Notes: generated by a model not told the origin, from the letters alone. Positions 13,100 to 30,079 are shown, numbered from the stretch's first letter. The stretch is DNA of 64,000 nt from an uncultured Kiritimatiellota bacterium (GCA_934621385.1 CAKTUI010000003.1:17998-81997); one strand, 5' to 3'. Program-made: numbers and translations.

Positions 13100-13111
13100 G
13101 TTAACTGTCCT

Positions 13112-13456
13112 TCATTGATTGGAATAGATGCGGGTAGGTTCTTCCCTTTGACGGCTCTTCTTCGACACATTACAAATCACGACCGCTATGAGCAGTATCG
13201 TCACAGCCGCTACAATGGCCACAAACAGGGTTCGTTCTTTCATGCGCAGAACAATGGGTTCTATAGGCCATAATAGCAATAGGAAAAGCGATATTTGCCA
13301 GAACTCGGTCAACGTAACTTGATTGAACAGCAACGCAAATATCATGGCAGCTTCCGGAAGCAAAAAAAGTAGAGAGCAGACTTTGAACGCTCTCCAATAA
13401 GGCATTGATTTGGAGATCGTAGGCATTTCGGTAGTGAGTAACTTCTTCAAGTTCAT
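13112..13456 (-). CDS. Three-TM small membrane protein (possible immunity protein)
   Basis: 114 aa, hydrophobic, with GGAGGG upstream of the ATG. Low GC. Confidence 0.5.
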   Translation of the reverse strand: MNLKKLLTTEMPTISKSMPYWRAFKVCSLLFLLPEAAMIFALLFNQVTLTEFWQISLFLLLLWPIEPIVLRMKERTLFVAIVAAVTILLIAVVICNVSKKSRQREEPTRIYSNQ

Positions 13457-13472
13457 TAAGTTCTACACCCTC

Positions 13473-13802
13473 CTACTTCTCAAAAAACACCATCAGCAAT
13501 CTTATTAACGCCACGATCACGGCAAAGAGGCAAAAGGCCTGAATGCATCCTTTGGGTAATTTGCAACCCTCTACCATTGGATTATATTTAATAAACACAG
13601 ACTTCTCGCGCATTATCCGTATATCAAGAATGGTTAGAACTACAACCGCGAGAATCCAGAGGCATCCAAGATTTGCAGTTATTTGCACGATGAACGGCAC
13701 GGGTAGTATCAGAAGAATGCCGACACACCACTTCCTCATCAGATGAGAAAGCACCGTTATAATCGCAAGATAAGAAATTAAAATTAGTGTTTGTGTCGTC
13801 AT
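13473..13802 (-). CDS. Candidate cognate immunity protein of the RHS toxin tip (three-TM)
   Basis: 109 aa. Its ATG overlaps the RHS stop as ATGA (13799-13802), the classical toxin-immunity coupling. Confidence 0.6.
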   Translation of the reverse strand: MTTQTLILISYLAIITVLSHLMRKWCVGILLILPVPFIVQITANLGCLWILAVVVLTILDIRIMREKSVFIKYNPMVEGCKLPKGCIQAFCLFAVIVALIRLLMVFFEK

Positions 13803-16800
13803 CTTGCCGGCCCCGTAAAATCATTTGGAATGGGAATGTCAGGATTTGTATCCGTATCAACCTCTGGTGACGGTAAGATGCCGATAACATTAATCGACAC
13901 GTTAAACGTTTCAACAACAACGACACCTGCCGCTGTCGATCCCGAAACTCCGCCTTCGATAACAAACTCGTATCGGATCATTCTAACACTTGTTTCCGTT
14001 GCAGTCCAACGCCCAACCGTTTGTAGTGGTTTCACTTGTCTTATTACAGCAGCTGATCTTGTTACTGACGCCCAACCCGTTGCACAAGCAGCAATTACCT
14101 CGAAAGTCGTATATGAATAGTCCAACGCTGTCTCAAGAGTTGATCCGTGGTATCCCGTAAGGCGATAAGACATTTCTCTATATGATTGTTGTATAAAGGT
14201 GCCTGGAGGTAAAGCACGGCCTTGATAACGGCTTTTCATGTTTTCATAGGCATTATGTATCTGATCCAATCCATAGGCCATTAATGCAGCACCTCCCAAC
14301 ACTCCTCCAACACCTCCAGTGGCAAAAGTCAGTTTAGCACCAGCGATGAATGACAAGGTTCCAGCAAGCATTCTCACGCCATCTGAAAAATAGCCCCAGA
14401 AACTCTCCCCAAGGATGTCTATGTATAGAACGGGATTATTATCACAAAATCCATAGAGGTTCTCGCCTCCATTCTCCTCGATGGGATCGCGGTTGAGCCA
14501 GCGTCCGAGATCGGGACGATAGAACCGACGCTTGTAGCCGATCATTCCCGTCTCGCGGTCGTGGTACTGCGTGCTGAAGCCGAAGGAGAATACGTCGGCG
14601 AGATTGCCGTTGGAATCAACTATGTTGCCGTAGGGATCGTAGACGTACTGCGCTGCGATGCTCCCAGTCTCGGAGACGTACAGGATAATGTTGCCGTTGT
14701 GGTCGTAGCAGGGAATGTAGAACACGCCGTCCACCGACACGGCCAGCAGCCCCTCCACTCCGCCCGCGCCCTGCTCCGTGCCGGACTTGTCCGCGCCCCA
14801 GAAATACTCGAACGTGCGGGTCGTGCCGTTGGCGAACTCGACCTTTTCAAGGACGATGTTGTTGCCGTCCCAGACAAACGTGTGCGTCTCCTGCGTTTCC
14901 CATTCGTGTATCCCGACCGGCGGCGACGGAGGCGGCGCAATGCTGGAATTGAGCCGCTGGACGGTCTTGCGGATTCGCCTGTTGCGGTGGTCGTAGGCGT
15001 TCAGCACGCGGATCACGCCGTTCGTCTCCGCCGCCGAAGTCACCGAGACAAGGCGGTTCTCGGCATCGTAGGCGTAGGCGAACGTGCCGTCGCCCGTCAT
15101 GTTGCCGTCGGCGTCGTACACGGGATTCGCGCCTGCGGAAACCGCCGTGTACTGGTTGAGGCTGTTCGCCGTGTAGGAGTTCGTCTCGGCGTTCGCCGCC
15201 GACCAGAGGCGGTTGCCGATGCTGTCGTAGGCGTAGCCGTAGCGATTCGTGCCAACGCTCGCGGCCGCGAGTTCGGAGCGGCGGTTGTACAGCCATTCCC
15301 GGACGAGCGAAACGGAGTCCGTGGCGTTCGTCGGACGGTTCAGCAAATCGTACTCCGTCGAATACCAGTAGATCGACTGGCCGCCGAAGAAATAGTCGCG
15401 CCGCGTGACGAGGTGCCTGCGGCCCGCCTCGCGCGACAGCCTGGCGGAGAAGCAGTTCCCGTTCGGCAGCGTGTAGACCGTGTTCGTCACATACGAGCCG
15501 TCGTAGGCGAGCGACACCGACACGCCCCGCCCCGCCGCGTTCGTGAGCGCATAGCCGCACACGCGATCCTCCGAATCGTAGAGGCGGACCTTCGCCGAAT
15601 GCCGGACGTTCGTGACGACGACCGCCGTCTCCTGGGCGCGTCGGAACTCGTCGAATGTCCGATTGACGGAGAACGCCTCGCCACTGACGGTTACGCTCTC
15701 ATTCGTGTTCAGCAGCCGGTCGTCGTAGCCGTAGGCGTAGGACGTGCCGTCAGAGAGAGTCGCCGACGCTGTCTTGCCGGAATCGGCGTATGTGTATGCG
15801 ACCGACGGCGTAGCCGTCCCAGAGTAAGTCGTGCCGCTCACGAGGTTGCGCACATTGTAGACGTGTTGCTTCCACACGCCGCGCGCCCATGTCGTGCGCG
15901 TCTTCTTCCCGTTGTCCGTGTAGGAGTATGCGACGCGCGAACCGTCCGCGTACTCTTTCGCCGTGTTCACGCCGCTCGCAGGGTCGAATTCCCATTGCGT
16001 CTCGTCCCATGTCGCGCCGCCGTCGCGTGTCGTGAAACCGTGCGTCTTGCGTCCGGCGGAATCGAAGCCGGACAGGATCGGATAGGCGTCTCCGCTCGTG
16101 GAGACCGTGCGGCCAAGCGGATCGTAGCCGGTCACGGTCTCGTTTCTGAGCGCGTCAGTCCGCCGCACTTCCCGGTTCAGCATGTCGTATTCGGCAGTCG
16201 CTTCCGCGACACGCCCGTCTCGGAAGTCCGTGATGCGCCGCACGACGTTCCCCGACTGGTCGTATTCAAGGCTGTCAACGCGGTTCGTCGCGCCGGACGC
16301 GTCCGACGCCGCCACGGCGACGTTGCGACCAAGCGCATCGTAGGACATCTCGCTTGCCCCGTCGATGGACGTCTGGTCGAGCGTGACGCCATAAATCGAA
16401 CGCGCGGTCACAGGGGTCGAGGCTTCGATCTGCGAAACGGAGGTCAGGACGCCGGTGGCCGCATCGAATGCCGTCTCCGTGACGGTCTCGCGCCCAGACG
16501 CCGCGACGGACACCGTGCGGCTGCGTAGGGCGTCCGAAAGCCCCGTCAGCTGTACCTTGCGAATCTGCACGGAGTTGGTGACGTTGCCCGTCATTCTCAC
16601 CGAGGTGGCGATGCGGTAGATTTGCTGGCTGATCGTCTCGTAGGACGCATCGTTCAGGATCGCGGTTCCGTCCTGCGATGTGCTTGTGCGTTCCCCGCGC
16701 TCGTTGTAGCCATACGTGACAACCGGCGAACCGGTCGTGGATGCGGAGAGGATTCGCGTCGTCGTGCCGTCGTAGGCGTTGACCGTGACAATCGTCGATC

Positions 16801-19800
16801 CGTTCGCGCCACACACGGCGGACGAGACGAGGCGTCCAAGGAAGTCGTATGTCGAGACGGAGTTCGTCACGACACCGCAGTCGTGCGACTCCGTGACCAC
16901 GTACTCGATGCGACAGCCGTCGGCGGCGTAGTCCTCGAAGCGCCGCTCCTCCGTAAACTTGTCGCCGCCCCACTCGCGGCGCGTTGAGGAGCCGCCGCCG
17001 AAGACGCTACGGCTCTTCGTCGCCGTCACGCGCACCCCGTTGGTGAAGACCTCCTCGCCGCTCTCGATGCAGTTGCCGAGCAGATCCGTGCGCGTCATCG
17101 TCATGCGTCCGCGCTCGTCCGTGCGGATCGCGAGGTCGCCGCCGCCGTTCGGATACTCGGTCGCGACGGACGACAGCACCTTGCCTTGGGAGGACCGCCA
17201 GTCGTTCGCCTCGCCCAGAACGAAGCCAACGTAGGTCAGCGTGTTCGTCTCGCGTCCAAGTCCGTCGAAGAAGTGCTGCGTCACGCGGTAGCCACCGTTG
17301 GTCGAAATGTCGGCCTGCCACACGTCCTCGTCCGCATTGTAGAGCTGGTCGTAGCCGGTCACGCCGGAGCGCAACACGCGGCGGCGCTCGCGGTCGCGCC
17401 GCCAGAGGAGGCGGCAGCACGAATAGGCGTTGGTGGTCGACGTGCCGTCGGAGTAGACCGTCGAGCGCAGACGGTTCTTCTCGTCGTAGAGGGACCGCTC
17501 CTCGTCAAGCATCCTGCCGCCGTCCGTCAGGTGCGTGGCCCTGCGGACGACCAGCCCGTAGGCCGCATCGTAGTCCGTCACCGTGTACGTCGGGAGCGGA
17601 CTGGACGAGAAGGACGACCGGGACGTGCAGGTCACGACCGCGCCCGTGGCGACGTAGTCATTCACGGTGAGCAGTCCGTTCTCGTCCAGTTGCGCGGAGA
17701 CCTTGCAGCGCATCACGAGGGGCGTCCCAACCCCCGTCTCGGTGAAGGTGGTCTCGTAGGAATAGGCGTTTCCATCCGCGTTCGGAGCCGCCCCGCCTGC
17801 GGCGGAGCCGGCCCGCCACCTCTCCGCCTTCACGGTCTCGCGTCCGCCTGCGGCGCCGGTCGTGTACCGCCACCACGTCCGCCCAATCATCGTCGCGACG
17901 CCTCCCGCGACAACGTACTTCGTCTCGGTTCGCACCTTGCCGACGAATTCGCCGTCCTCGCCGTCCCCGGCAAGCGGCGCGTAGTCGAATACCGTCACGT
18001 AGGCATCGGACAGCCCCTCCGCGCCCGTCAGGACGTTCGAGACCGCGACCGGGAAGGATCCTGGGATCTCCGAGCCGTTGCGCTGCTCGACGCGGAGAAT
18101 CTCGCGCCCGGACTCGTCGAAGTCGTGGTACTCCCACGGGCGGTCGTTCCCGGTCAGAAGCCGAAGCTTGCCGTGACGCGCCCTGCGTCTGGGATCGAAC
18201 CAGTAGTCGGCCTCGCGTGTGCGCCCGTTGAGCCCCGTCCACTCGTAGCGGTAGGTCTCGCGGATGACAGCGTTCTCGCACTCGCCGTACCGGTGGGATT
18301 CCGAGTAGACGTAGGACAGCTCGTTTCCGTTCGCGTCCCTCACCGTGCGCCATTCCCTCTTCGCCCCGTCCCACGGATCGTTGATCCTGTCCTCGACGGT
18401 CAGCTCCTCCGAGACCTGCTTGAGGTTGTCAAACCTCGTCCAGTCGCCGCCATCGCATGTGAACGTCCAGTCCTCGAGGGGATTGTCGAGTCTGCTGATC
18501 TTGCGGATTCTGATCCGCGACGTGCTCCCGTCCACATTCGAGAACTCCCACGTGTGGTCGAGCGTCCCGGAGAGACGGTCCCGGACGGTCATCCGCACCA
18601 CGCCGGACACGCTCTCGATCACGATGTCCCGGCCGCGTTCGCCCATGCACACGATGTGGCGGCTGTTCCCGTTCGTGGTCACGGTCACGCTGGCGTCCTC
18701 CCTGAACAGGTAGCGGAAGGTCGACGGAGTCACGATGATCGGATCGTCCGTCTTGAAGTAGGCGAATCCGTCCGTCTGTCCCCTGCGGGGCGATCCGACC
18801 GACACGCGGAACGCGAGCGATCCGAGTTCCGTCCCGTCGTAGTGCTGGCAGGAGCCGCCCGTGCAGGTGTCCTCGCACGACTCGCACTCGTCAAGCTCGG
18901 TCAGAAGCTCGGAATGCGTCAGCGATCCGCCGCAGCCGTATTCGCGCAGATGCAGGGCCTTCCCCGACCACACCACCTCGTCGCCGACCTTGACCACGCC
19001 GGTGCATTTCTCGCCGTCCGTGTCGAAGTCTGTCGACACGCCCGCATAGTCTCCGATGCCCGACGAGACGCCTGGTTCGCAGTTGCAGTACCATCCGCCG
19101 GAGTAGTCCCGCGACCAGTTCCCCCAGAGGCACTTGCTGTTGAGCGGGTAGTGTTCCTCGTAGTAGTAGGTGTCGCTGGTCCAGTCGTAGCCGAGGTCGG
19201 AACCCGCATAGCAGTGATCCTCGCCGTACCACACGCTCGGATCGAGAATGAGCAGTATATGGCCTCCCCCGCCATCGCCGGAACGGAGCATGCGCCGCAA
19301 GACCGGCGGCGCAAGCGAGGCGGAGATCTCCGGGAACGGATACGCGCCGGGGCGGTAGACCGCAAGCGTCCCGCCCGAGACGTCGCCGTCGTAAGCGATG
19401 CCGCCGTCCGAGACGCCCTCCATCCCGGAAAGCACCCCCATGTCCGCCTCCTCGTCGGAGAGCGGGCCGTTGCAGGGACGATGCGTCCTGTCGATGGTCA
19501 GTCCGACGGAGGAGTACGATCCGTCCGTGAACACGGAGTACGAGATTCCGTTGTACTTGATCTCCCTGCCGCCCTCCACCTTCAACTCCGGCACGTAGGC
19601 GAGGAGGTGGAGCGGGGTGGCCGTGCGCACCCTGCACCCGGTCGCGACGAGCCGGAGCGTGAGGTTCTCCGCGCCGTTCGTCGAGACCGGGATGCGGAAG
19701 CTGTCCCCGGACGGGGAGCGGACGAGCGAACCCGAGCCGCCGAAGGAGTCCTCCCATTCGAGGCGCATCCCCTCCAGCATCCAGCCCGCCGCCGAATCGG

Positions 19801-21349
19801 GCGCGGCCGAGACGAAGTACTGCTGCCACGGGCTCGTCTTCGAGATGCGGAACGTCCTCTGCCAGACGAGCGCGGGCGCACCCTGCGGAAGCTCGGCGGC
19901 GAATGCGTCCGCCATCTTCCACGACACGAGGGAGTTTGTGACGCAGACGACGGGCGAGGGCGCGGCGTTCGTCGGGTTGAGTCCCAGGAGCATCTCCGTT
20001 CCGAGCGTGAAGCCGTCCTCCTTGGCGGCGGTCGCATCGTCCACGACGTTCGTGTCGCCGAACCAGTGCCGCTCGTACTCGTCGTCGATGCCGTCGCGGT
20101 CGGCATCGGTGGAGGCGGTGGCCGTCTGCGGATCGGGGTCGGAACCGTCCACGAGGCCGTCCCCGTCCGAATCGCGGTTCAGGGGGTCGAGGTTCGCCGC
20201 GACCTCCGCGCCATCGGGAATGCCGTCGAAGTCGGAGTCGGGAAGGTCGGGGTCCGTGCCGAGTCCGAAGATCTCGTCCTCGGTCGGGATGCCGTCGCCG
20301 TCGCGGTCGGGATTGGCGATGTCGTAGGCCGTCACCCGCTGGAAGGCGAGCGAGGTGAGAGACCTGCCGAGCGCCAGAGCGAACCACGCGCCTCCGCCGC
20401 TCCTCACGCCGACCGTCACGTTCGTCAGCAGATCGTCGGACGCAAGACGCGAGAGGTCGAAGCGATAGACGAACGAGCCGCCGGGACGGAACTCGACCTG
20501 GAACGAGACGGGATTAGTCGCGCATCGGTCGAGAAGCACGTTCTGCCAGGTGACGAGAAGCGAGTTCTCCTCCGTCAGCGTCCACCAGAAGACGCAGGGA
20601 CGGTTCGTCTCGTCCAGCTCACCCCAGTTTGCCTCCGGGGCGACGCCGAGGGGAGCCGAGAACGGCGAGAAGCAACGGTTGGTGTCCGCGACGTCAGGCA
20701 TCACCACGCCGTTGGCGAATGCCGCGAGATTCGTCACGTATCCGTCGTCGAACGGGAACGTCCAGTCCGGGAGATCGGCATGGATCCTGACCGTCGCCGC
20801 GCCATGCCGCACCCAGTTGGTTGCGAGACAAGCCCCATTCGGTGCCGAGAAGTCGAACGTCTCGTTCGTGCCGACACCAGTCAGCACGAATCCCGCTGCA
20901 TAGGCGCTCGGCGGAATGCGCGAAACATGCGAAATGGGTGCGTTGGTCGGCGCTTCCGGCTCCGGATCGCCGGTCTCGCCGCCGTTGTCGCGGTCACCCA
21001 GGTTCGGCGCTCCGCCGAACATGCCCAGCATCATGGCCCCGCCGACGTCGTTCGTGTTCGCCTCGCCGTCCACGCCGCCGACGAGATTCGTCATGTCGCC
21101 CTCCGCCCCCTCGACCACGTTCGTGATCGAGCCCCCGTCGCCGCCGGTCGAACCGCCGCCGTAGTCCGGCTTCGTGCCGCCGTAGACAATCGCAGCCGCC
21201 AGCATCCCGCCGCAGACGACCCTTGTCAGCCAGGACTGCGCCTTGAGACGCTTCTCGGCATCCTTGAACACTCCCTTTTCGTAAAGCCAGCAGACGATGA
21301 ACGCCGTCCAAAGGGTGACGACCCCGCCTATCGCGAACAACTTGAACAT
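13799..21349 (-). CDS. RHS-family polymorphic toxin, 2516 aa
   Basis: Two N-terminal TM helices. TSP3-type Asp-rich Ca-binding repeats ([12 protein letters not shown].., ~20059-20314). Long YD-repeat core. Core-end motif [39 protein letters not shown] at ~14405. Confidence 0.9.
   Translation of the reverse strand: [2516 protein letters not shown]
13802..14404 (-). other. Variable C-terminal toxin tip of the RHS protein (201 aa, glycine-zipper-like segment)
   Basis: It follows the DILGE core boundary, and GC drops from about 14480 downward. Contains [25 protein letters not shown]. No recognisable nuclease or deaminase motif. Confidence 0.6.
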
Positions 21350-21358
21350 GGCTGGCTG

Positions 21359-22009
21359 TCACCTCAATGTCATCACGAAGCCCTTGAACTGGATGTCGAC
21401 GAAGAACCGCTCGTTCTGCACGTCGACTCCCCGCGCGGTCATCCGCATCAGATTCCAGTCGCGCCCGTAGAGCCACTCCGGGCGAGCGGTGGAGAGGTCG
21501 GCGAACGCGGCCCCGGTCTCGTTCGTCGCGGTGAACGACTTGACCTCGACCCTGTCCTTTCCGACCCTGTAGTGCCAGTCGAGCGTCCGGGCGACGCCGT
21601 TCGTGCCGACGCCATCCTCCTCGATTCGCTCCCCCGTCCTGAACCGCTCGACGAAGTACCGCCCGCACTCCCAGCCGATCACCACGTCAGTCTCCTGCGG
21701 GGCAAGCCTCCCGTCCGAGTCGGCATCGGTTCCGAACGCCACCTCGACGTTGTTCGATGGCGTTCCGTCGAAGGAGAGCCAGAAGTCGAGAGTCCTCACG
21801 CCGCCCGTCTGGTCGAGGCGGTGGTGCGCGGTCACCTCGGTGTCGGCGAACTCCGGCGCGGGCAGCCGGCGCATCTCCTTCCCGGAGACGGCGAACACCG
21901 CAGCGGCCGCGAACGCCAGCATCGCGGCCATCCATCCCTTCCACTCGATGTTCATCTTCATGTTCTTCAACCTCTCTGTCAAATCCTTCATCTTCAGACC
22001 TTTACGCAT
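21359..22009 (-). CDS. Membrane-anchored hypothetical protein immediately upstream of the RHS gene
   Basis: 216 aa (start ambiguous among three ATGs) with one TM (WMAAMLAFAAAAVFAV) and then a beta-rich domain. Only a 9-nt gap to the RHS start. Confidence 0.5.
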   Translation of the reverse strand: MRKGLKMKDLTERLKNMKMNIEWKGWMAAMLAFAAAAVFAVSGKEMRRLPAPEFADTEVTAHHRLDQTGGVRTLDFWLSFDGTPSNNVEVAFGTDADSDGRLAPQETDVVIGWECGRYFVERFRTGERIEEDGVGTNGVARTLDWHYRVGKDRVEVKSFTATNETGAAFADLSTARPEWLYGRDWNLMRMTARGVDVQNERFFVDIQFKGFVMTLR

Positions 22010-22140
22010 ATCACAAACAATTCAACCGCGATGGCAAGCAGCGAACAGCCATCACCGCCCCGATTATCGTAAGGCACCGCCCCCAATTGCGGAACGCAGA
22101 AGCTGATTCCTTCAAGTCATCGAACCACCTCACGGCCTGT

Positions 22141-22293
22141 CTACTCTTTTTCGCACCCCTCCATCTCCTTGCGGTGACGTTCCATCGCCTCCGCCTGTTC
22201 AATTGTTATGAGTCGCGGTTGCGGTCCCTTGATCCGAGGATCGCGCTTCCGCGGCCACCACACCATGCCCATCATCCGTCCAAGAAGCGTCAT
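22141..22293 (-). CDS. 50-aa ORF coupled to the FtsK-like gene
   Basis: MTLLGRMMGMVWWPRKRDPRIKGPQPRLITIEQAEAMERHRKEMEGCEKE. Its ATG overlaps the FtsK-like stop as ATGA. Below the ORF-track length cut-off. Confidence 0.35.
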   Translation of the reverse strand: MTLLGRMMGMVWWPRKRDPRIKGPQPRLITIEQAEAMERHRKEMEGCEKE

Positions 22294-23255
22294 TCCTTCT
22301 CCTCAATGAACTTCGGCTGTCCGTACTTCCCAACCGCAGCAGATACGAGTTCGCCGATTTCCGCATCGGAGATGTATGCACCCTGCCCGCGCACGATTTC
22401 TTCGGAACCCGAACGGAACAAGAAGCCCCCGCGTCCGTGAAGCTTCTCCGCTCCCACATCATCGATGATCGTCCGAGAATCGATGCCGCTCACCGTTTTG
22501 AACGCCAGCCGCCCCGGCATGTTCGACTTCAACAGACCCGTAACAACCTTGCAGTCAGGACGGGACGTGGCGATCACAATGTGGATACCAGCCGCCCTGG
22601 CCTTGGCCGTGATCCGCGAAACCAACGCCTCGACCTCCTTGCCTTGCGTCATCATCAGATCCGCGAACTCGTCAAATACGGTAACGATATAGAGGACTGT
22701 CCTGGGCGTTTCACCACCAACGTCACTCACAACCTTTCGGGCGTTGAAATCCGTGATGTTGCGACAGTACGCCCTTGCGAACATCTTAAGCCGCTTCTCC
22801 ATCTCGCAGCAGTCCAGCCAACGCAATGCAAAGAGCGTCCGCGAATCGGAGGTGATGACTGGCAGGATAAGATGCGGCAGTTTGCATGCCCATGTGAACT
22901 CGACACATTTGGGATCGTAGATCATGAGCCGCACTTCATCCGGCGACTTGGTAGAAATCAGTCCCGCGATAAACGAATTAAGGCATACTGTCTTTCCCTG
23001 TCCCGCGCCACCGCCCACCAGAAGATGCGGCAACCGCGCAAGGTCGATGATTTGACTTGTCCCGAACTCATCCCGCCCGAGGACGAACGGGAGTGCGTAG
23101 TTATGCGCCCTTCCATCTACTGGCGCGATTTCTCTGGCAATCAAACCTGCTGTCTGCGGCGATTCCATGCGGTCGGCCGCCTGCATTTCACGGGCAACCT
23201 CCAAGAGGTTCTTCGCGCATTCACGCAGTTTCGCAATGACATCTCTGTTATCCAT
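22290..23255 (-). CDS. FtsK/SpoIIIE-family ATPase, motor domain only
   Basis: Start at ATG 23255 (GGAGGAGAGG upstream). Walker A GGGAGQGKT, Walker B VTVFDEFADL, and ATSRPDCKVVTG..AFKTVSGIDSRTIID match the FtsK motor. No TM region or gamma domain. Confidence 0.75.
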   Translation of the reverse strand: MDNRDVIAKLRECAKNLLEVAREMQAADRMESPQTAGLIAREIAPVDGRAHNYALPFVLGRDEFGTSQIIDLARLPHLLVGGGAGQGKTVCLNSFIAGLISTKSPDEVRLMIYDPKCVEFTWACKLPHLILPVITSDSRTLFALRWLDCCEMEKRLKMFARAYCRNITDFNARKVVSDVGGETPRTVLYIVTVFDEFADLMMTQGKEVEALVSRITAKARAAGIHIVIATSRPDCKVVTGLLKSNMPGRLAFKTVSGIDSRTIIDDVGAEKLHGRGGFLFRSGSEEIVRGQGAYISDAEIGELVSAAVGKYGQPKFIEEKE

Positions 23256-23269
23256 ATTCCTCTCCTCCG

Positions 23270-24499
23270 TCAGCAATACGCATATCTGCCGTCAAGTTTT
23301 GTGAAGGCCTCTGCTATCTTCGCCGCACTCTTTTCATCCTTCAACGAGTTGGTATAATACCGCCACGCGCCCGCAGCAGCCCTGCACGGCCCTCGTCTTT
23401 CGGTCGAATAGAGCCAGTTGTCCCTGCGGAACTTCTCAACGGTATTCAGCAACTCCGCCATCAGCACCGCAGTCATCGTCGAATTCTTCACGCAGAGATG
23501 GTCTGCCAGCGCAAGCATCAGCTGATATGACATTTCCCGATTGTCCGCACTGCATCCTCCGGCGAGCAACCGGCTTGCCTCGTCATTCAGGAGTTTTGAA
23601 AACGCCTTGAAGGATGCATCCCTCGAATCGTCGTAGAACTTCTCCTTCGCCGGAGGTGCGAACATCCGATGGCGAATGAGGACGTCAGCTATCGCTCTTC
23701 CAAATGCCTCAACTTCGATGTGTTTCCTGCCAGTAACCCACGACGGATGTTGCGTCTGGACGATCAGCGTCCGCCCGTATCTGTAGACCTTGATCAGCCA
23801 CGGGCTTCCGTCCTTCGGATGGATCACCGGCTCAATCATCTCGATGCCCTTCGGGAAAACACGATCCGCCCCAGAGTTGTTATGCAACGTGTAGATGATC
23901 ACATTTGGACAAAACACCTTGATGAACCTGTCAAATGATGACAGCCCGCATTCGTCAGCGATCCGTTGGATAAGCGAGAGCCGAGACGGGGTGATCGAAT
24001 CCCTTGCAACGCCGCCACCAACCCCATCTGGCTTGTACTTTTCTATCGGATAAGAGTTGCTCCACGCAATTCCCCTGAAAATCGGACTTGCCGCATCAAG
24101 GGCGTCATGCGTCGAATAGACGGTGTTCAACACCCCCGCAACGGCCTTCCAAAACGGGTTCTTCCATTTCGTCGGGCCATCGGCAAGATGTCCTTTTCTT
24201 GCGCATGATTCGCGCTGAAGAACCTCGAACGAAAACTCGAGTTCGTATTTACCATTTTTGCGGTCTTCCAAATCCGTCAGAAGGGAGTCCTTCCAATAAT
24301 TCGTGCCCTCGCCCACGATGGCCACCTTCACAAGCGACTGTGCGTAGAGGTTACCACACCCAGGAAGGAAAAGCGCAGGAACTGCCCAAAGCTCCTTGTC
24401 CGTAAATCCAACATCCGCTATCCTCTGAAAGAACAGATCCGATGCTGGGCCGTACTCATCCCGAAACCTTTTCCGAAGTTCCAATTCCCGTGGTGACAT
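23270..24499 (-). CDS. 409-aa hypothetical protein, possibly with a UDG-superfamily-like fold
   Basis: Start at ATG 24499 (AAAGGAG upstream). The motif order VAIVGEGTNYW .. FWKAVAGVL .. IAWSNSYPI .. NVIIYTLH .. TQHPSW loosely parallels UDG family 4 motifs. Helical C-terminal domain. This is a weak inference. Confidence 0.3.
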   Translation of the reverse strand: MSPRELELRKRFRDEYGPASDLFFQRIADVGFTDKELWAVPALFLPGCGNLYAQSLVKVAIVGEGTNYWKDSLLTDLEDRKNGKYELEFSFEVLQRESCARKGHLADGPTKWKNPFWKAVAGVLNTVYSTHDALDAASPIFRGIAWSNSYPIEKYKPDGVGGGVARDSITPSRLSLIQRIADECGLSSFDRFIKVFCPNVIIYTLHNNSGADRVFPKGIEMIEPVIHPKDGSPWLIKVYRYGRTLIVQTQHPSWVTGRKHIEVEAFGRAIADVLIRHRMFAPPAKEKFYDDSRDASFKAFSKLLNDEASRLLAGGCSADNREMSYQLMLALADHLCVKNSTMTAVLMAELLNTVEKFRRDNWLYSTERRGPCRAAAGAWRYYTNSLKDEKSAAKIAEAFTKLDGRYAYC

Positions 24500-24513
24500 A
24501 TTTCCCGCTCCTT

Positions 24514-24765
24514 TCATCCAGCGCACCGAGTCCCATTAGGCAAAATGGCCGAACACGTCCCTCTGACAACGGCCCCGACAAGCCAGAGTACGCCACCGAT
24601 GACAAACAACAAAGCAAGGACTCGAAGCACAAACACCCCGACCGCCGCCAGCACGGCGCAGACCATACACACGCACATGATAAGCAATGCTGCGGCAAGT
24701 AACAAAACGACAACGGCGAGTGCCGCCAGCGGAAGGCACAGAATTCCAACGGCTATGTTCTTCAT
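24514..24765 (-). CDS. 83-aa extremely hydrophobic membrane protein
   Basis: Two or three TM helices. ATGA overlap with the YkgJ-like stop at 24762-24765. Confidence 0.5.
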   Translation of the reverse strand: MKNIAVGILCLPLAALAVVVLLLAAALLIMCVCMVCAVLAAVGVFVLRVLALLFVIGGVLWLVGAVVRGTCSAILPNGTRCAG

Positions 24766-25184
24766 CCCTCGCCCCCTGTCTCGCCGCTCGTTCCAAGCAC
24801 TTCTTCCGACAAACTGTCAAGCGAGCCTTCTGGGAGGGAAGACATAAGCCGCTCAAAATCGGTTTCGAGTCCGGCCTTCTCACCCTCGCCAACTTCCACC
24901 CCCGACATTGCAGAGCGCAGTTCATCAAAATGAGACTTGAGCATCGTGCAAGACGTCGACATGGCATCGAGATATTCGTCCTTCGTCAACTTCGCGGCGA
25001 AGCGCGAATACATCCTGTCAACGCTGCAAACCTCGGGGCGATGATCGTATATGTCGCAGAGGTTGTCGCACGTAAGATGGACGCACACGCCATCGCCACG
25101 GTCGAAATGCTTGAGCTGCGGCACATTGCCTATGAGGCGGCAACACAATCCACAACGATCACATTCAAATCGCGGCGATGGCAT
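24762..25184 (-). CDS. YkgJ-family cysteine-cluster (zinc/iron-chelating) protein
   Basis: CDRCGLCC .. C-VHL-C .. CDIYDHRPEVC matches the UPF0153/YkgJ pattern. Acidic tail. Confidence 0.65.
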   Translation of the reverse strand: MPSPRFECDRCGLCCRLIGNVPQLKHFDRGDGVCVHLTCDNLCDIYDHRPEVCSVDRMYSRFAAKLTKDEYLDAMSTSCTMLKSHFDELRSAMSGVEVGEGEKAGLETDFERLMSSLPEGSLDSLSEEVLGTSGETGGEG

Positions 25185-25199: not shown

Positions 25200-25751
25200 T
25201 TATGCAGCAGCCCTCTTGAGATACTTGTTCGTCTCGAGGAGAACGTCCTCAGACTTGCTTGTGAGCGCACCCTTGTCGTCGAGCAACGCAGTGTCAAGGA
25301 TCGCTTTGACAGCCTGCGCCGTCGAAAGAAGAGCGGCCACACGCTTCTTCGATTCGGGCCTGTACTTGGCGAAGTCACAGCCCTCCATGTCGATGATGCT
25401 CTCGAAACTGTAGAGCTGCGGGAACATCAGCGCCTCAAGCTTGATCAGAACCTGCGTGAACAGGTCGGCGCGGCGCGTGATCGCATTGCAGGCCGTCACC
25501 ATGACATTGACCTCCGCCTCCGCCTCCTTGACCTTCGCGATCTCGCCGCCCAGGGCCTTCAGATCGTCGAAGCTGCCGCCCTCGGGGACCGTGACCTGCG
25601 GATAGGGCTTGCCCTTGAACTTCATCGTCACGTACTTCATGAACAGCAGCGAGAGGATGTAGTTCTTGTACTGCGACGGGTCCATGCCGCCGCGCAGCTT
25701 GTCGCAGCTCGCGTCCAGGGATGAATAGATTTCGTTCTTCTTGATAGCCAT
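25200..25751 (-). CDS. Stand-alone HsdM_N-like protein (N-terminal ~75 aa only) fused to unrelated sequence
   Basis: Start at ATG 25751. MAIKKNEIYSSLDASCDKLRGGMDPSQYKNYILSLLFMKYV matches the type I HsdM N-terminus. After ..DDLKALGG the similarity ends and there is no methyltransferase domain. Confidence 0.55.
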   Translation of the reverse strand: MAIKKNEIYSSLDASCDKLRGGMDPSQYKNYILSLLFMKYVTMKFKGKPYPQVTVPEGGSFDDLKALGGEIAKVKEAEAEVNVMVTACNAITRRADLFTQVLIKLEALMFPQLYSFESIIDMEGCDFAKYRPESKKRVAALLSTAQAVKAILDTALLDDKGALTSKSEDVLLETNKYLKRAAA

Positions 25752-25771: not shown

Positions 25772-27559
25772 TCAGTTTTTGGACCCCGCAGTTTCGGCGA
25801 AGCAGTCGGCCGCGTTCGTCGCCAAGATCGCCCCCAGCTCTTCCTTTGCCTGCCCGAGCCGCGTCCGAAGCTCGACCACGCGGCGAACCGCCTCGCGGCA
25901 CTTGTCTCCAATTTCCTTCTGCCGATCAAGCGGGAGAACAGGAATCGGCAGCATTTCCAAGCTCTTGTATTGCAGCGTCTTCACCATGTTCCCGACAGCC
26001 GAGTTCCGAAGATACCGCTGGGCGTACTCGTTCTCAAGGCAGGACTTGATGAAGTAGGGATCAGCCCGCGTCGGATCGACCGTCAAGACCAGAACGTTCC
26101 CGCCGGGCAGAAGCGTCTGCCCAGACGCCAATTCAGCAACGGCCACCTTGAAGACCGAGTTGTTCGCCATGACCCGCGTAATCAGCACATCACCATCATG
26201 AACACAATAGGACGCGTACTTTTCCGGCACTTCGGAAAGATTCATCAGCACGGCGTCTACCACGCCGTCATTGATGTTTCCCGACGAGACATACCGAATG
26301 CCCGTATCAGCATTCGACACCAAGTCATCAAGTTCCTTTGACGGGATCGCCGCACCGCGCTTCCCGACGCTGATCAACGCGGACAATTGAACACCCTCGC
26401 GGAGTGCCATCGGATCGGCAAAATGCCGCAAGACCGTCAGATTACACGTCTCGTCCAAGAGCGACTTCTTTTCGACCACCGCGCAGATCTCGTCATCGAG
26501 CGTCGTCCCCGTTCCGCTCTCCATGCTCCGCATGATTCTTGCAACGCCGCCGGTCGTGAGGGCATTGTTGCTGCGCCCCTTCTCGCAAAGGTTCCCCGCA
26601 CGGATCATCTTCACGGACTCATTGCCCTCGCTAAACACAACCATGTAGGTCGAAATGGAAGTGTTCGTGAAGAGCTTCGCCGGAAGCTCAATGATCGCCT
26701 CGACAAGATTGCGCTGGACGAAGTACCGGCGGAACGGTTCGGCCTGCTGCGTGTGCATGGCCGACGGCGGCAGAATCACCACGGCCCGTCCACCCGGCTT
26801 CATCGCGGCGACTGCGCGAGCGGCAAACAGCCAATCGCTGGCGGCCGACGGCGGGATTTCCGGGAAGTCAGGGAATGCCCTGCGGATGAACTCGCGGACG
26901 TTGTCCTGTTCCGGGAGACCGCGCACCGCAAACGGTGGCTGCGAAAAGACCTTGTCAAACTTGTCCTTCTCGTATGACTGCCCGAAGAAGTCATCCCAGA
27001 CGATCTGCACATCCGCATTGCAGCCATGCATGCTGATCTCTGCCAACGCCGCCAATTCGAGTTTCTTCTCATACCCGACGACGTTGCTCTTCTCACTCCC
27101 GGCTTTTACCTTGGACGCCGCCAGACGAATGAAGTCCCCCGTTCCACATCCGAGGTCCGCCACCGAATCGCCCTCGCCGATCCTCAAGACATCAGAGACC
27201 AGCTCCACGACGGGCAGAGACGAGCCCGATGTCTTGGCAAGTTCAAAACGCTCCCCGTTGACCGCCCTTGCGAAATAACCGCCGAACGAATCAACCGGGA
27301 ATGCTGTCAGGAGAGGAAGGTACTCGCCCCAGTGGTCGCCCAGTCGATTGCATATAAAGTCCGACAACTTCTCCGAAACGTGGCCAGCTGCGAGAAGCGC
27401 TTTCAGATCCGTCACCCCGCTGTAACGGGCAGCCAAGCAAAGAACATACGCTCCGCACACAACGGATGTATACGGTACTGCGGTATGCGCCCTCTCGACC
27501 ACCATCAGCGTGGTCTCGATCTTGTTCTGTATCTCACTCAGTTCTATCACAAAAATCAC
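25772..27559 (-). CDS. N6-adenine DNA methyltransferase fused to one HsdS-type target-recognition domain (no R subunit in window)
   Basis: 595 aa with a GTG start. Motif I is VADLGCGTGDF; motif IV is the non-canonical FSQPPFA. The C-terminal TRD plus conserved helix (GDVLITRV..LPIPVLPLDRQKEIG) is typical of HsdS halves. Confidence 0.75.
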   Translation of the reverse strand: MIFVIELSEIQNKIETTLMVVERAHTAVPYTSVVCGAYVLCLAARYSGVTDLKALLAAGHVSEKLSDFICNRLGDHWGEYLPLLTAFPVDSFGGYFARAVNGERFELAKTSGSSLPVVELVSDVLRIGEGDSVADLGCGTGDFIRLAASKVKAGSEKSNVVGYEKKLELAALAEISMHGCNADVQIVWDDFFGQSYEKDKFDKVFSQPPFAVRGLPEQDNVREFIRRAFPDFPEIPPSAASDWLFAARAVAAMKPGGRAVVILPPSAMHTQQAEPFRRYFVQRNLVEAIIELPAKLFTNTSISTYMVVFSEGNESVKMIRAGNLCEKGRSNNALTTGGVARIMRSMESGTGTTLDDEICAVVEKKSLLDETCNLTVLRHFADPMALREGVQLSALISVGKRGAAIPSKELDDLVSNADTGIRYVSSGNINDGVVDAVLMNLSEVPEKYASYCVHDGDVLITRVMANNSVFKVAVAELASGQTLLPGGNVLVLTVDPTRADPYFIKSCLENEYAQRYLRNSAVGNMVKTLQYKSLEMLPIPVLPLDRQKEIGDKCREAVRRVVELRTRLGQAKEELGAILATNAADCFAETAGSKN

Positions 27560-27578: not shown

Positions 27579-27587
27579 AGTATATCA
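27579..27587 (-). promoter_or_regulatory. Extended -10 promoter (TGATATACT) at the head of the long minus-strand gene train
   Basis: Reverse complement of agtatatca, ~20 nt upstream of the GTG start at 27559. Confidence 0.45.
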
Positions 27588-27876
27588 CATTTTGCATTGC
27601 CGTGTCAATGGCTATGACTTGCAGATTGTAAAGCAATATAAATCATACATTTCAGTTCGTCGCATCTCAAAGGACAAACTTTTTCGGGACTGAACGCTTT
27701 TGGGCCTCGAAAAACGTGAGCGGAGGCCGGGGCTGCGACTTCAAATCGCTCCTTCGCCGTCACTTGAAAAGGCAAAGAAAGAGCGTTTTATGATAAAGAA
27801 TTGTGAAATAGACGGTTGCTATTCGCCCGACATTACGGCATCATGTCAACCGTTGAATCAAACTGGCGAAAAGGAC

Positions 27877-28323
27877 ATGAAAGTAGGCGAACAGCTCAAG
27901 CAGGAACTGGCCGAGTTGCAGGAACTTGACCCTGAAACGCTGCGTCGGAAATACTGTGAGCTAACGGGAGTGAATGCCGCCGTCTTTGGGGCGCGGTTCA
28001 TGCAAAGCCGTTGCGCTTACAGCATTCAGCAACGCACCTTGGGCGGATTAACCCCCGCTGAACTTGAAACCCTCGCCTACATTGCCAATCACGATCCGAA
28101 GACGAACAAGGAACTTCGAGACGCACCGCGCTCGGCAAAGGACAAACGCGGTGTCACGTACAGGCGCGAATATCACGGCAAGCTTTATGAAATGAAGTCG
28201 CTCGGAAACGGACGATACGAATACGAGTCGAAGATCTACACATCTCCGACAGCCGTCGTCCGCGCCATCACGGGCAAGAGCCACTACAACGGCGTCGTAT
28301 GGTGGGGCCTCAACCGGGGGTAA
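27877..28323 (+). CDS. DUF2924-family protein (recombinase-associated)
   Basis: Start at ATG 27877. LRRKYCELTG..YSIQQRTLGGL..REYHGKLYEM..YESKIYTSPTAVVRAITGKSHYNGVVWWGL is the DUF2924 pattern usually found upstream of large serine recombinases. Confidence 0.65.
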   Translation: MKVGEQLKQELAELQELDPETLRRKYCELTGVNAAVFGARFMQSRCAYSIQQRTLGGLTPAELETLAYIANHDPKTNKELRDAPRSAKDKRGVTYRREYHGKLYEMKSLGNGRYEYESKIYTSPTAVVRAITGKSHYNGVVWWGLNRG

Positions 28324-28342
28324 AACGAGAAAGGAGTTCAAA

Positions 28343-30079
28343 ATGAACCACGGGAAAACGATCCGAGTGGCGATTTACACGCGTAAGTCCGTCGAGGATT
28401 CAGAGGAAAAGCAGTTCAACTCCATCGATGCCCAGCGCCAGATGTGCGAGAGTTTCATCGCCGCCAAGGCGGCAGAGGGATGGATTGCCCTTCCCGAACG
28501 ATTCGATGACTACGGCTACAGCGGCGGCAATCTCGAACGCCCCGCCTACCAGCGGCTCATGGCGCAATGCGAACAGGGACTCGTCGACAAGATCATCGTC
28601 TTCCGAATCGACCGCATGACGCGCAGCACCAAGGACTTCTGCGAGTTCGACGAGAAGATGAAGAAGCTCGGAGTAGGATTCACCTCCGTCTCCGAGCCAT
28701 TTGTCGACACCTCCTCGCCGATGGGCGAGCTGGTCGTGAACCTTCTCGTCTCGTTCGGGCAATGGGAACGCAAGACGATTCAAGAGCGCATTCAAAAGCA
28801 CTTCAAGACCGCTCTCGACCAAGGCTTCTTTGTAGGCGGCATACCGCCCTACGGCTACAAGGTCGAGAACCAGACACTCATCCCTGACCCGAAGACGGCG
28901 CAGAACGTCCCACACATTTTCGAGTTGTTTGTCCAGCTCCATTCAGCGAAGAAGGTGGCGGCCAAACTCGCCGAGGAAGGCATCGAACGCTTCCCCGGAC
29001 GCGCCTGGACGACGCAGTCGGTCTACAATTGCCTTGGCAACGTCCGCTATGTCGGCGATGCCAACAGCCACGGCAAGATCGTCAAAGGCAAGCAACAGGC
29101 GCTCATCACACGCGAACTTTGGGAGCGTGTCCGCAACCTCGTCAACGCCGCCAAGGGCAGCCGCGAGAAGAAAGAGATGACCCCGGAGGCGGCCGTTTAT
29201 CAAGGTCTCATCTTCTGCGGCCATTGCCAGCATCCGATGTCCTACCGCTGGTCGAAGAAAGATACGCTCGGCGTTCGGAAATATCCCTACTTCATCTGCC
29301 AGCAAGATGCCCGCAAGGGTGTTTCAGAATGTCCGATCCGCCATGTCAGCGCAACAACCGTGCAGGAAGCAATCGAACAGGAACTCGAATCAATCATGAT
29401 GGCTTCTACAACGATGCTCGTCGCGGCGGCAAACGTCACCCCCTTCACGCCCGAGCAGATCGTCACGGGCTTTCGTCGCCACGGCTTCTGGCAACAGCTG
29501 TCGACGAACGACAGGAAGGCAATCTACCGTCTCTTCATCCGTTCCGTCACGGTGTTTGAATCGACACTCGACATCCGCGTCAAAATGCCGTGTGACGATG
29601 CGCGAAACGAACTTGTGAAGACTCTCTGCATCCCTGCGACGCCAACCAGCGAATTCGACACGCGCATCGATGCCGACGGATGCCTCTTCATGCGCATCCC
29701 GGTCGCCTTCCGAACGGTGTCCGGGCGCAAGAAGATCGTCCGCACGGACGGCGGCTCGGTCTCGCAGAGACCAACCCAGCACGAGATCAACAACACCCTT
29801 CTGCAGGGAGCGGTTCTCAAGGCAATTGCACGGGCATTCGCATGGTTGCGGCTTATCGACGAAGGCAAGGCGTCCTCCGTCCACGAACTGGCGGATCTCG
29901 TCGAGGAAGACCGCCACTACGTGCGCTATACGCTGCGCCTCGCGTTTCTTTCGCCCCGGATTATTCGCGCTGCGATGACCGGCGACCTGCCAAACGGTTT
30001 TTCGCTGGAGAAAGTCCGCAAGGTCGAAACCGACGATTGGGCAGAGCAGGAGCGGATTCTTGGATTTCCATCAACCTGA
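28343..30079 (+). CDS. Large serine recombinase (integrase)
   Basis: 578 aa. The resolvase-type N-domain has a catalytic Ser in VAIYTRKSVEDSE..SIDAQ. A recombinase domain and a Cys-containing zinc-ribbon region (FCGHCQHPM..FICQQD) follow. Confidence 0.85.
   Translation: MNHGKTIRVAIYTRKSVEDSEEKQFNSIDAQRQMCESFIAAKAAEGWIALPERFDDYGYSGGNLERPAYQRLMAQCEQGLVDKIIVFRIDRMTRSTKDFCEFDEKMKKLGVGFTSVSEPFVDTSSPMGELVVNLLVSFGQWERKTIQERIQKHFKTALDQGFFVGGIPPYGYKVENQTLIPDPKTAQNVPHIFELFVQLHSAKKVAAKLAEEGIERFPGRAWTTQSVYNCLGNVRYVGDANSHGKIVKGKQQALITRELWERVRNLVNAAKGSREKKEMTPEAAVYQGLIFCGHCQHPMSYRWSKKDTLGVRKYPYFICQQDARKGVSECPIRHVSATTVQEAIEQELESIMMASTTMLVAAANVTPFTPEQIVTGFRRHGFWQQLSTNDRKAIYRLFIRSVTVFESTLDIRVKMPCDDARNELVKTLCIPATPTSEFDTRIDADGCLFMRIPVAFRTVSGRKKIVRTDGGSVSQRPTQHEINNTLLQGAVLKAIARAFAWLRLIDEGKASSVHELADLVEEDRHYVRYTLRLAFLSPRIIRAAMTGDLPNGFSLEKVRKVETDDWAEQERILGFPST

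Follow-up and report, generated by a model that had tools for sequence, protein, structure and literature searches.

A predicted glycosylase-fold protein and a motor-only FtsK paralog in a candidate DNA-conflict locus of a Kiritimatiellota bacterium

We analysed a stretch of 64,000 nucleotides (nt) from an uncultured Kiritimatiellota bacterium (GCA_934621385.1, CAKTUI010000003.1:17998-81997), referred to below as the window. On its minus strand, a compact string of genes at positions 22141-25184 encodes a YkgJ-type protein, a hydrophobic protein of 83 amino acids (aa), a 409-aa protein named here UDGL, an FtsK-like ATPase named FtsKL, and a small basic peptide, p50 (Table 1). UDGL is predicted to carry a fold of the uracil-DNA glycosylase (UDG) superfamily, and FtsKL is an FtsK paralog reduced to its motor domain. 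Loci related to this segment are designated by L numbers.

An earlier annotation made from the sequence alone (the original prediction) had described five minus-strand open reading frames (ORFs) joined by ATGA overlaps and short spacers, each with its own purine-rich ribosome-binding site, and all of this proved correct. The five ORFs are called with identical lengths in public assemblies. Overlapping ATGA sequences were found at 24762-24765 and 22290-22293, the spacers measure 14 nt (83-aa ORF/UDGL and UDGL/FtsKL) or 15 nt (upstream ORF/YkgJ), and a purine-rich stretch of the GGAG type precedes each ORF. The motifs GGGAGQGKT, VFDEFADL and ATSRPDCKVVTG, together with VGEG, FWKAVAGVL, WSNSYP and HPSW, were all read in the translations. 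A further ORF, p46', was absent from the gene list of that prediction.

Ratios of non-synonymous to synonymous substitution (dN/dS) against relatives amount to 0.05-0.065 for UDGL, 0.18-0.23 for FtsKL, 0.14 for YkgJ and 0.22 for p50. Because these ratios are low, the genes can be regarded as functional and held under purifying selection, that is, as more than chance ORFs. UDGL, the 83-aa ORF and p50 gave zero matches in Pfam, NCBIfam, PADLOC and PHROGs.

Table 1. Positions of the features discussed in the text. Positions refer to the window unless a related locus is named.
Feature	Position	Strand	Description
YkgJ-type CxxCxxCC protein	24762-25184	-	140 aa; Pfam PF03692
83-aa hydrophobic ORF	24514-24765	-	no family match
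UDGL (409-aa ORF from ATG)	23270-24499	-	two-domain protein; N-domain with predicted UDG-superfamily fold
FtsKL (321-aa ORF from ATG)	22290-23255	-	FtsK paralog reduced to the beta (RecA-like) motor domain
p50 (50-aa basic peptide)	22141-22293	-	start overlaps the FtsKL stop codon (ATGA)
p46' (truncated remnant of a 46-aa membrane peptide family)	22011-22133	-	alignment to peptides of relatives
216-aa protein (p218 family) and 2516-aa RHS/YD-shell toxin	13799-22009 (RHS 13799-21349)	-	Pfam TEN_YD-shell
Chimeric 183-aa ORF	25200-25751	-	HsdM aa 1-70 joined to aa 227-339 of a 339-aa protein (p339)
M+S fusion N6-adenine methyltransferase	25772-27559	-	Pfam N6_Mtase E 1e-32; C-terminal half matches type I S-subunit models
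Sigma-70-like promoter	27579-27608	-	TTGACA-18-TATACT, 11/12 matches, extended -10 TG; about 20 nt upstream of the methyltransferase start
DUF2924 gene and large serine recombinase	27877-30079	+	right edge of the island; Pfam, gene calls
Sigma-54 promoter site, L012	3398-3413		near-consensus pattern match
Sigma-54 promoter sites, L017/L018	2336-2351, 9333-9348		near-consensus pattern match
Sigma-54 promoter site, L036	6535-6550		near-consensus pattern match
Sigma-54 promoter site, L006	3094-3109		near-consensus pattern match
Sigma-54 promoter site, L001	6654-6669	-	near-consensus pattern match
Sigma-54 promoter site, L027	5816-5831		near-consensus pattern match

UDGL, FtsKL and their small neighbours

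UDGL consists of an N-domain (about residues 40-280) and a helical C-domain (about residues 295-409). In its AlphaFold2 (AF2) model, which has a predicted local distance difference test (pLDDT) score of 80, strands are placed at residues 59-63, 144-147, 200-205 and 244-250. This model and its Foldseek matches display the four-stranded parallel beta-sheet of the alpha/beta core by which members of the UDG superfamily are recognised. When the model was compared with the PDB by Foldseek, the top 11 matches all belonged to the UDG superfamily (UdgX, family-4 UDG and TDG; E 1.7e-3 to 9e-3, probability 0.92-1.0). The family-4 UDG of S. tokodaii holds rank 8 in this list, and BdiUNG and SMUG1 hold ranks 13-14. 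Among the viral structures of BFVD, the top six matches include phage PolA (DNA polymerase I) and two phage proteins of UDG type.

Profile searches point in the same direction. A profile built from 52 UDGL sequences (alignment A2) gave a single significant match among PDB sequences, the family-4 UDG 4zbx (E 0.002), and the alignment spans motif B, where 'tpHPsw' of UDGL is paired with 'tyHPaa'. Two of the 52 members reach the Pfam UDG model PF03167 (E about 0.0035). The suggestion of the original prediction that the 409-aa protein might adopt a UDG fold has thus gained support from both structure comparison and profile matching.

The UDG-like order of motifs that had been read in the single protein corresponds to positions conserved in the family. 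Across the 52 members Y16, G49, Y52, G63 and H251 are invariant and F116, W117, W146, N148 and E153 nearly so; F116 and N148 occur in 51 members each, H251 in all 52, and an acidic residue is found at position 64 or 65 in every one. Motif A, in a variant form, follows strand 1 and motif B follows the last strand; the motifs fall along the predicted strands in the order known from UDGs, with N148 placed after strand 2 in the model. Motif A reads mostly G-x-[DE]-T-x-x-W, reminiscent of GQDPY in family 1, and in the clade of the window it is GE[GS]T, reminiscent of the family-4 motif GE[AG]PG with Thr in place of Pro.

In family 4 UDGs, four conserved cysteines ligate a [4Fe-4S] cluster. No conserved Cys was found in the UDGL N-domain in any of the three alignments (A1, A2, A3), the only near-invariant one being C372 in the C-domain. 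Because the conserved cysteines of family 4 and UdgX are missing, UDGL is not a family-4 UDG. We regard it as a new family of the UDG superfamily, the fold being supported by the model; glycosylase catalysis is plausible as a prediction.

The C-domain was modelled with higher confidence than the whole protein (pLDDT 93 over residues 289-409), and its best PDB match by Foldseek reached only E 0.6. It also occurs alone, in proteins of about 100 aa. A serine-recombinase-type or winged helix-turn-helix fold, brought up by the pattern 'LN..G..T..G..Y', was considered for this domain and dropped, Foldseek E values against the PDB being at least 0.6.

A word-seeded search gathered 11 clusters of the UDGL family, and an exhaustive profile search about 190 clusters at 50% identity. 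They are known almost entirely from gut and rumen metagenomes, and only one member, annotated as 'hypothetical protein' in Thiorhodovibrio frisius, has a named source. No UDGL was matched in IMG/VR by pattern scan or in phage and plasmid collections by tblastn. Related loci were retrieved with patterns from A1, since A2 and A3 offer no sufficiently conserved stretch, and distant members are under-sampled as a result. In one rumen metagenome-assembled genome (MAG), the homolog (L023, 10001-11196) takes the form of two overlapping ORFs (154 aa and 351 aa), which represent either a frameshift pseudogene or an assembly error.

FtsKL matches Pfam FtsK_SpoIIIE with E 1e-39, and FtsK_4TM, FtsK_alpha and FtsK_gamma gave no Pfam match in it. 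The NCBIfam FtsK model scores 204 bits against a cut-off of 1566 and covers profile positions 988-1269 only. Residues 49-319 align with residues 188-474 of the Pseudomonas aeruginosa FtsK motor construct 2iuu, and GxxGxGK[ST] (Walker A), DEFAD (Walker B) and AT[SQ]RP (ATSRPD) are intact in this comparison. Hence the RecA-like beta domain of FtsK/SpoIIIE is present, and the four-transmembrane (4TM), alpha and gamma domains are not. The original prediction had described the ATPase as a motor without transmembrane (TM) anchor, linker and gamma domain; Pfam, NCBIfam and the 2iuu alignment agree, and the alpha domain is missing too, its place being taken by a clade-specific N-terminal segment of about 50 aa. 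FtsKL is a motor-only FtsK derivative, in which the beta domain alone of the FtsK domains is kept.

About 45 clusters of proteins of 300-337 aa have the same architecture. Relatives of FtsKL at 84% (P0016) and 59% (P0025) identity possess a gamma domain. In L036 (6565-10106) an FtsKL copy 77% identical to that of the window stands two genes upstream of a full-length ftsK. The product of the latter has the 4TM, alpha, beta and gamma domains and is 44% identical to FtsKL, and a gene for a conserved 46-aa membrane peptide lies between the two. In PADLOC, FtsKL matches SspH with E 2e-47.

Two micro-peptides accompany the motor. The peptide p50 is 78% identical in L037-L040, although FtsKL is only 60% identical there, and the same ATGA overlap is kept; in L012 a 55-aa homolog is 66% identical. 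We considered whether p50 could be a frameshifted remnant of the lost gamma domain, which is ruled out by L012, where a gamma domain and the 55-aa homolog occur together. A 46-aa membrane peptide with a C-terminal TM helix (p46) is found beside FtsKL in L012, L036 and L048, in the last of which FtsKL is 45% identical. The remnant p46' aligns with these three peptides over its first 29 residues or so and diverges inside the TM segment. Thus p50 and p46 are kept down to 60% and 45% FtsKL identity, respectively.

The genes preceding UDGL behave differently. YkgJ matches Pfam PF03692 over residues 7-79 with 25.2 bits (cut-off 23), which bears out its earlier identification as a Cys-cluster protein. 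It is found only in L007 and L012-L015 (73-100% identical), where UDGL is at least 94% identical to that of the window. A 140-aa protein that occupies the corresponding place in L017 was tried as a YkgJ homolog and ruled out, having no Cys motif and no alignment. For the 83-aa ORF a relative is missing even in the closest full-length locus, L012, whose positional counterpart, an 81-aa membrane protein, is unrelated in sequence. The 83-aa ORF is a non-conserved ORF at a recombination site, and both it and YkgJ look like lineage-specific passengers. The original prediction had taken the five genes as one tightly coupled module; judged by their distribution they are not one conserved unit, and UDGL and FtsKL are separable cassettes.

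Gene strings in relatives and the island of the window

In L012-L016 the same genes are part of a longer string. On one side of it, cpYpsA and a sigma-54 activator are transcribed divergently. On the other side follow, in order, DUF1232, p513, p240 (weak TerB), p339, YkgJ, TM81, UDGL, FtsKL with a gamma domain, a hexapeptide acetyltransferase, p55, p46, p151, PspC, an RNase T-type exonuclease, Macro, p218 and RHS. By gene order, the window segment is a cut-down version of this string with its upstream part replaced.

Lineages of UDGL at 22-70% identity stand behind a sigma-54 enhancer-binding protein (L001, L005, L006, L017-L020, L026 and L027). The defence-type surroundings suspected in the original prediction are evident near UDGL in relatives, in the form of GmrSD, Mrr, PDDEXK_4, PLD and type I restriction-modification (R-M) genes. 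A PDDEXK_4 nuclease is next to UDGL in L001, L025 and L026. UDGL of L022 has GmrSD upstream and Mrr_cat downstream, that of L027 has a PLD nuclease, RhuM/Fic, a double-AAA protein and a PIF1 helicase as neighbours, and in L017 there is a weak match to a YhcG-type nuclease nearby. In a UDGL subclade of about 36% identity, the gene borders the terminase and portal genes of a prophage in L031 (4861-8928), and in L033 (115-8193) it stands amid Mu-like genes, namely those of a UmuD-like protein, a repressor, a nuclease and a transposase. Three UDGL-bearing genome loci were long enough to be judged, two of them Kiritimatiellae MAGs (sheep omasum and goat rumen) and one a rumen MAG; the hosts of the relatives and of the window are probably gut or rumen Kiritimatiellae.

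Of 13 UDGL lineages, about 7 have FtsKL at most five genes away from UDGL (the window, L011, L007/L012, L006, L017-L020, L021 and L029), and UDGL identity in this set ranges over 22-100%. As regards synteny across genomes, the pairing of these two genes stands in about half of the lineages, and the co-occurrence with a methyltransferase fusion, treated below, does not.

Near-consensus sigma-54 promoters (TGGCAC-N5-TTGCT) were recognised directly upstream of FtsKL or of p202-FtsKL in L036, L006 and L017/L018, and another heads the long operon of L012. Such predicted sites near the enhancer-binding protein precede FtsKL, double-AAA ATPases and the long operon in relatives. The enhancer-binding protein has a GAYTGA loop, a C-terminal helix-turn-helix (HTH) and an unrecognised N-terminal domain of about 190 aa; a CARF-like nature of this sensor domain was considered and is unsupported by Pfam. 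In the window, a pattern scan of 8-31 kb found no sigma-54 promoter, and no sigma-54 activator is present among the window genes checked. GmrSD occurs beside the motor as well, three genes upstream of FtsKL in L036.

A separate cassette was seen in L017 (2343-5238) and L041 (2246-5472), just upstream of the enhancer-binding protein or FtsKL. It encodes unusually short DNA_pol3_alpha proteins of 553-665 aa, together with a DnaB_C/AAA_25-like protein and a protein of about 300 aa that weakly matches DUF6946 and REase-ARP, and may be a mutagenic or repair polymerase cassette.

The window copy of the string has a history of its own. At least 17.5 kb leftwards from 30772, through the RHS gene, are identical in two chromosomal flanks of one metagenome sample (L008 compared with L009). 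One flank is an ABC transporter/lyase side and the other a LuxS/PNP side, the latter represented by L009. Identical sequence in two different flanks implies a mobile island of about 22 kb, with the serine recombinase and DUF2924 genes at its edge. For its left end, a drop in guanine-plus-cytosine (GC) content and the genes present give no more than a rough position, 8.1-9 kb. The remaining content of the window is housekeeping according to gene calls and Pfam.

Towards its 3' end the RHS gene is low in GC (0.43-0.49). Downstream of it lie a putative immunity gene (109 aa) and an array of small genes, one of which encodes an SMEK_N-domain protein (8000-14000). The same tail array of small genes comes after a different RHS gene in L043-L047, and in L043 and L046 a type I R-M system with a YhcG nuclease comes next. 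At the far end of the window, the 16-mer CGGCAAGGCTGTTGCA occurs three times at an exact 54-nt spacing (61296-61419, minus strand) within a 549-aa ORF (60651-62300) that has no Pfam match. It surfaced solely through matches to a sigma-54-like pattern, and the spacing suggests an 18-residue tandem repeat in the protein.

Weighing the readings

As the best reading, we take the region to be the rearranged 3' portion of a mosaic string of DNA-conflict genes from gut and rumen bacteria, here carried on a serine-recombinase island of about 22 kb. Within it, by analogy with the recently described Brig proteins, UDGL would be an anti-phage defence glycosylase, possibly assisted by a translocase, a proposal for and against which we see the chances as evenly poised. 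UDGL would flip out and excise a non-canonical base, most likely a modified pyrimidine of phage type, and the abasic sites so formed would block replication of the invading DNA, as with Brig1, Brig2 and Brig3. In other lineages, an adjacent nuclease (PD-(D/E)xK, Mrr or PLD) could then cut the damaged DNA. FtsKL would act as an ATP-driven translocase on double-stranded DNA that p46 holds at the membrane, as the 4TM anchor does in FtsK itself, and in relatives the neighbouring enhancer-binding protein would switch it on from the sigma-54 promoters. It might aid UDGL by threading or clearing the target DNA, or it may be just a frequent island neighbour. In the window the string is probably transcribed from the promoter of a recombined R-M fragment.

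Several observations weigh against this proposal. The Foldseek E values of UDGL are modest (about 2e-3), its target-normalised TM-score is about 0.47, and the UDGL of the window itself has no match to the Pfam UDG model (PF03167) or in NCBIfam, PADLOC and PHROGs. UDGL is often found without FtsKL (L001, L022, L025, L027, L030-L034) and FtsKL often without UDGL (L036, L037-L041, L048). Since each is found alone, a physical or functional link between them is not required. The C-domain of UDGL is retained in lineages lacking FtsKL and is therefore not an FtsKL-specific adaptor. In the window the p46 partner is truncated and sigma-54 control has been lost; this copy may be partly decayed. Finally, genes of repair and stress response occur in the same strings (DnaQ/RNase T-like exonuclease, Macro, PspC, weak TerB, short Pol III alpha-like protein, UmuD), and these neighbours fit a damage-response reading equally well.

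One alternative, which we hold to be quite possible, is that UDGL and FtsKL are functionally unrelated, UDGL being an autonomous single-gene effector and FtsKL with p50 and p46 a separate module in the same recombination hotspot. The solitary occurrence of each cassette in several lineages and the persistence of the UDGL C-domain irrespective of FtsKL speak for it, and Brig1 and Brig2 likewise act as single genes. Moreover, in L006 and L017/L018 a sigma-54 promoter splits UDGL from p202-FtsKL, which therefore form distinct transcription units there. Against it stands the recurrent proximity of the two genes in about 7 of 13 lineages, given that FtsK-type genes usually number only one or two per genome. 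A single operon holds both genes in the window, L007, L011 and L012, with 14 nt between them, and in L029 they are again close in reversed order, FtsKL lying about 250 nt upstream of UDGL.

The main rival of the defence reading is a stress-induced regulon of DNA repair or segregation, which seems to us rather unlikely. The enhancer-binding protein would then sense DNA or envelope damage and induce UDGL against endogenous or toxin-inflicted lesions (for instance bases deaminated or ADP-ribosylated through the action of rival bacteria), and FtsKL would be an accessory soluble FtsK paralog, SftA-like, that clears or segregates damaged chromosomes. Sigma-54 promoters and the enhancer-binding protein flank the genes in relatives, and RtcR offers a precedent for such control of a nucleic-acid repair operon. 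The repair and stress neighbours named above also belong here, as does the combination of short DNA_pol3_alpha proteins with DnaB_C-like and nuclease-like partners, along with HIRAN, NUDIX and ADP-ribosyl glycohydrolase; in L036, FtsKL even stands beside a genuine ftsK. However, the patchy, mobile and mostly metagenomic occurrence of UDGL is not that of a housekeeping repair enzyme, its immediate neighbours are repeatedly prophage ends and nucleases of modification-dependent or other restriction type (GmrSD, Mrr, PDDEXK_4, PLD, type I R-M), and the window copy sits on a recombinase island with two genomic contexts.

The defence reading can be taken further. FtsKL, p50 and p46 might form a sigma-54-induced, membrane-tethered 'split FtsK' that captures or threads incoming DNA and offers it to interchangeable effectors that read modifications and are encoded alongside, namely to UDGL here and to GmrSD or to PD-(D/E)xK and Mrr nucleases elsewhere. 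We think this extension doubtful. If it were true, phages with modified DNA would be countered by a modular, motor-driven system of a kind so far undescribed.

Next, the original prediction had linked the genes to the orphan methyltransferase that precedes them, making the former the restriction-like arm and the latter the modification arm of one system. The nearest analogue would be MADS (methylation-associated defence system), whose components include a methyltransferase, an S-like subunit and a short ATPase of FtsK type. In the window the genes are indeed co-oriented with the methyltransferase and tightly packed behind it. PADLOC gave mad2 as the best match of the methyltransferase (E 2e-23), mad5 for its S half and mad8 for FtsKL (E 7.5e-20), and a type I R-M operon occupies the same place in L011. 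Synteny speaks otherwise. Only in L008-L010, all identical to the window, does this methyltransferase border the module, and a methyltransferase is next to UDGL or FtsKL in none of about 12 other lineages. Scores for the equivalog models are low (NCBIfam MADS2 35.7 bits against 720, MADS5 35 against 400), FtsKL scores 204 bits on generic FtsK against 70 bits on mad8, and the mad1-8 set, including equivalogs of MAD2 and MAD5, is absent from the window.

The junctions tell the same story. The N-terminal part of the chimeric 183-aa ORF upstream of YkgJ matches positions 1-70 of 810 of the PADLOC type I methyltransferase model (E 1.7e-30), and its aa 71-183 are 99% identical to p339 of L007 and L012, where p339 is intact, Gly/Ala-rich and probably membrane-associated. 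DNA homology of the window to L007 ends at 25540. This ORF thus marks the insertion junction of an R-M fragment. In L011 a block of UDGL (identical), FtsKL and p50 is preceded by type I hsdS-hsdR-ygjP, and the homology breakpoint against the window is at 24645. At L011 4086-4625, corresponding to window 24514-24645, a truncated YgjP-like ORF of this sister contig runs on in frame into the final 43 codons of the 83-aa ORF. L011 is, by this comparison, a second and independent R-M insertion at the same locus, differing from the first in its R-M block and in its in-frame junction. Because two different R-M blocks are joined through two different junctions, the M+S methyltransferase is a recent, replaceable neighbour of the cassettes and not their conserved partner. 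The sigma-70-like promoter predicted upstream of it probably drives the whole minus-strand string in the window. The two-arm system is largely refuted by synteny, and we consider it very improbable.

An accessory function for the downstream RHS toxin, in its export, loading or immunity, merits as little credence. FtsK-type ATPases power type VII secretion, and strings with FtsKL end with p218-RHS in the window, L012-L015 and L018/L019. Still, a 233-aa protein 41% identical to the 216-aa protein precedes a different RHS in L043-L047, where UDGL and FtsKL are lacking. The 216-aa protein was thereby ruled out as a part of the module, since it travels with RHS genes, and together with the RHS toxin it forms a separate unit downstream. 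FtsKL and UDGL, in turn, occur without RHS in L001, L022, L027, L036, L037, L041 and L048. With a single ATPase domain and neither FHA nor TM segments, FtsKL lies far below the EssC/EccC cut-offs of NCBIfam (63-78 bits against 347-778).

FtsK-type motors drive conjugation in actinomycetes, but that FtsKL is a TraB-like motor for double-stranded DNA transfer of the island, the other possibility raised in the original prediction, is hardly credible in spite of the serine recombinase, the two genomic contexts and a weak PDB sequence match to a 'DNA translocase coupling protein' (6o1w, E 7e-17), for FtsKL scores only 25 bits on TraB (NCBIfam cut-off 800; 204 bits on FtsK), in the window it has no gamma or winged-helix DNA-recognition domain, relaxase, type IV secretion, Spd-like, replication and other transfer genes are absent from the island and all related loci examined, FtsKL also occurs in recombinase-free loci beside chromosomal ftsK, and the likely hosts are diderm Kiritimatiellae.

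We return to the glycosylase reading and what would follow from it. If UDGL is active, it would constitute a new branch of the UDG superfamily, with its own catalytic motif and an extra domain without known fold, and the known range of defence by excision of modified phage bases, a recent discovery, would grow by one enzyme family and by the Kiritimatiellae, a little-studied group. FtsKL with p50, p46 and sigma-54 control is an uncharacterised module that could reveal the way in which a housekeeping DNA pump takes on a new role. For annotation there is a lesson as well: tight packing beside a methyltransferase can reflect recent recombination of cassettes, not a functional system.

Comparison with known systems

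RtcR is an enhancer-binding protein controlling a nucleic-acid repair operon (PMC7790460, PMC9650030). The relatives of the window resemble that arrangement in having a sigma-54 activator (N-terminal sensor, GAFTGA-like loop, C-terminal HTH) close to -24/-12 promoters of genes for nucleic-acid enzymes. Unlike in RtcR, the N-domain is not recognisably CARF and the targets are other ones, and the window lacks the regulator as well as the sigma-54 promoters. In the literature we found no paper linking sigma-54 enhancer-binding proteins to anti-phage defence.

Mad8 of MADS and the C-terminal domain of SspH are, like FtsKL, stand-alone or fused FtsK-type ATPases of modification-linked defence loci. 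Unlike with these, the match of FtsKL is confined to the generic ATPase domain, and other Ssp or MADS components are absent. Compared with FtsK/SpoIIIE proteins (FtsK, SftA), FtsKL is 44-50% identical to genuine FtsK beta domains and has Walker A, Walker B and ATxRP intact. It differs from FtsK in the lack of 4TM, linker, alpha and (in the window) gamma domains, in its own N-terminal segment, in its two micro-peptide partners and, among relatives, in sigma-54 control.

With family 4 UDGs and UdgX, UDGL shares the predicted four-stranded alpha/beta core, motif A after strand 1, an Asn after strand 2 and an HPS motif B. It departs from them in lacking the Cys set for [4Fe-4S], in Thr for the Pro of motif A and in a large insertion between strands 1 and 2.

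The closest counterparts of UDGL are probably the Brig proteins. Brig1 is a defence glycosylase of the UDG superfamily whose best structural match is the S. tokodaii UDG (PMC11078745), Brig2 is a UDG-like defence glycosylase that works as a single gene (10.1101/2025.10.29.685425), and Brig3 is an antiviral DNA glycosylase (10.64898/2026.02.25.707755). The likeness draws on fold, genomic context and literature; PADLOC 2023 predates the Brigs and NCBIfam gave no match. Unlike the Brigs, UDGL has an N-terminal helical extension, a C-domain of about 115 aa and the motif A G-x-[DE]-T-x-x-W, and an FtsK-like motor and sigma-54 control often go with it. On the other hand, Brig1 and UDGL have in common a UDG-type fold (predicted in UDGL) and very low sequence similarity to classical UDGs. 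The family-4 UDG of S. tokodaii, the best structural neighbour of Brig1, is for UDGL the sole match by sequence profile as well as one of the superfamily members found by Foldseek. Like the Brigs, moreover, UDGL is found in defence islands and mobile elements, has genes for ADP-ribose processing as neighbours, and is proposed to excise a phage-specific modified base.

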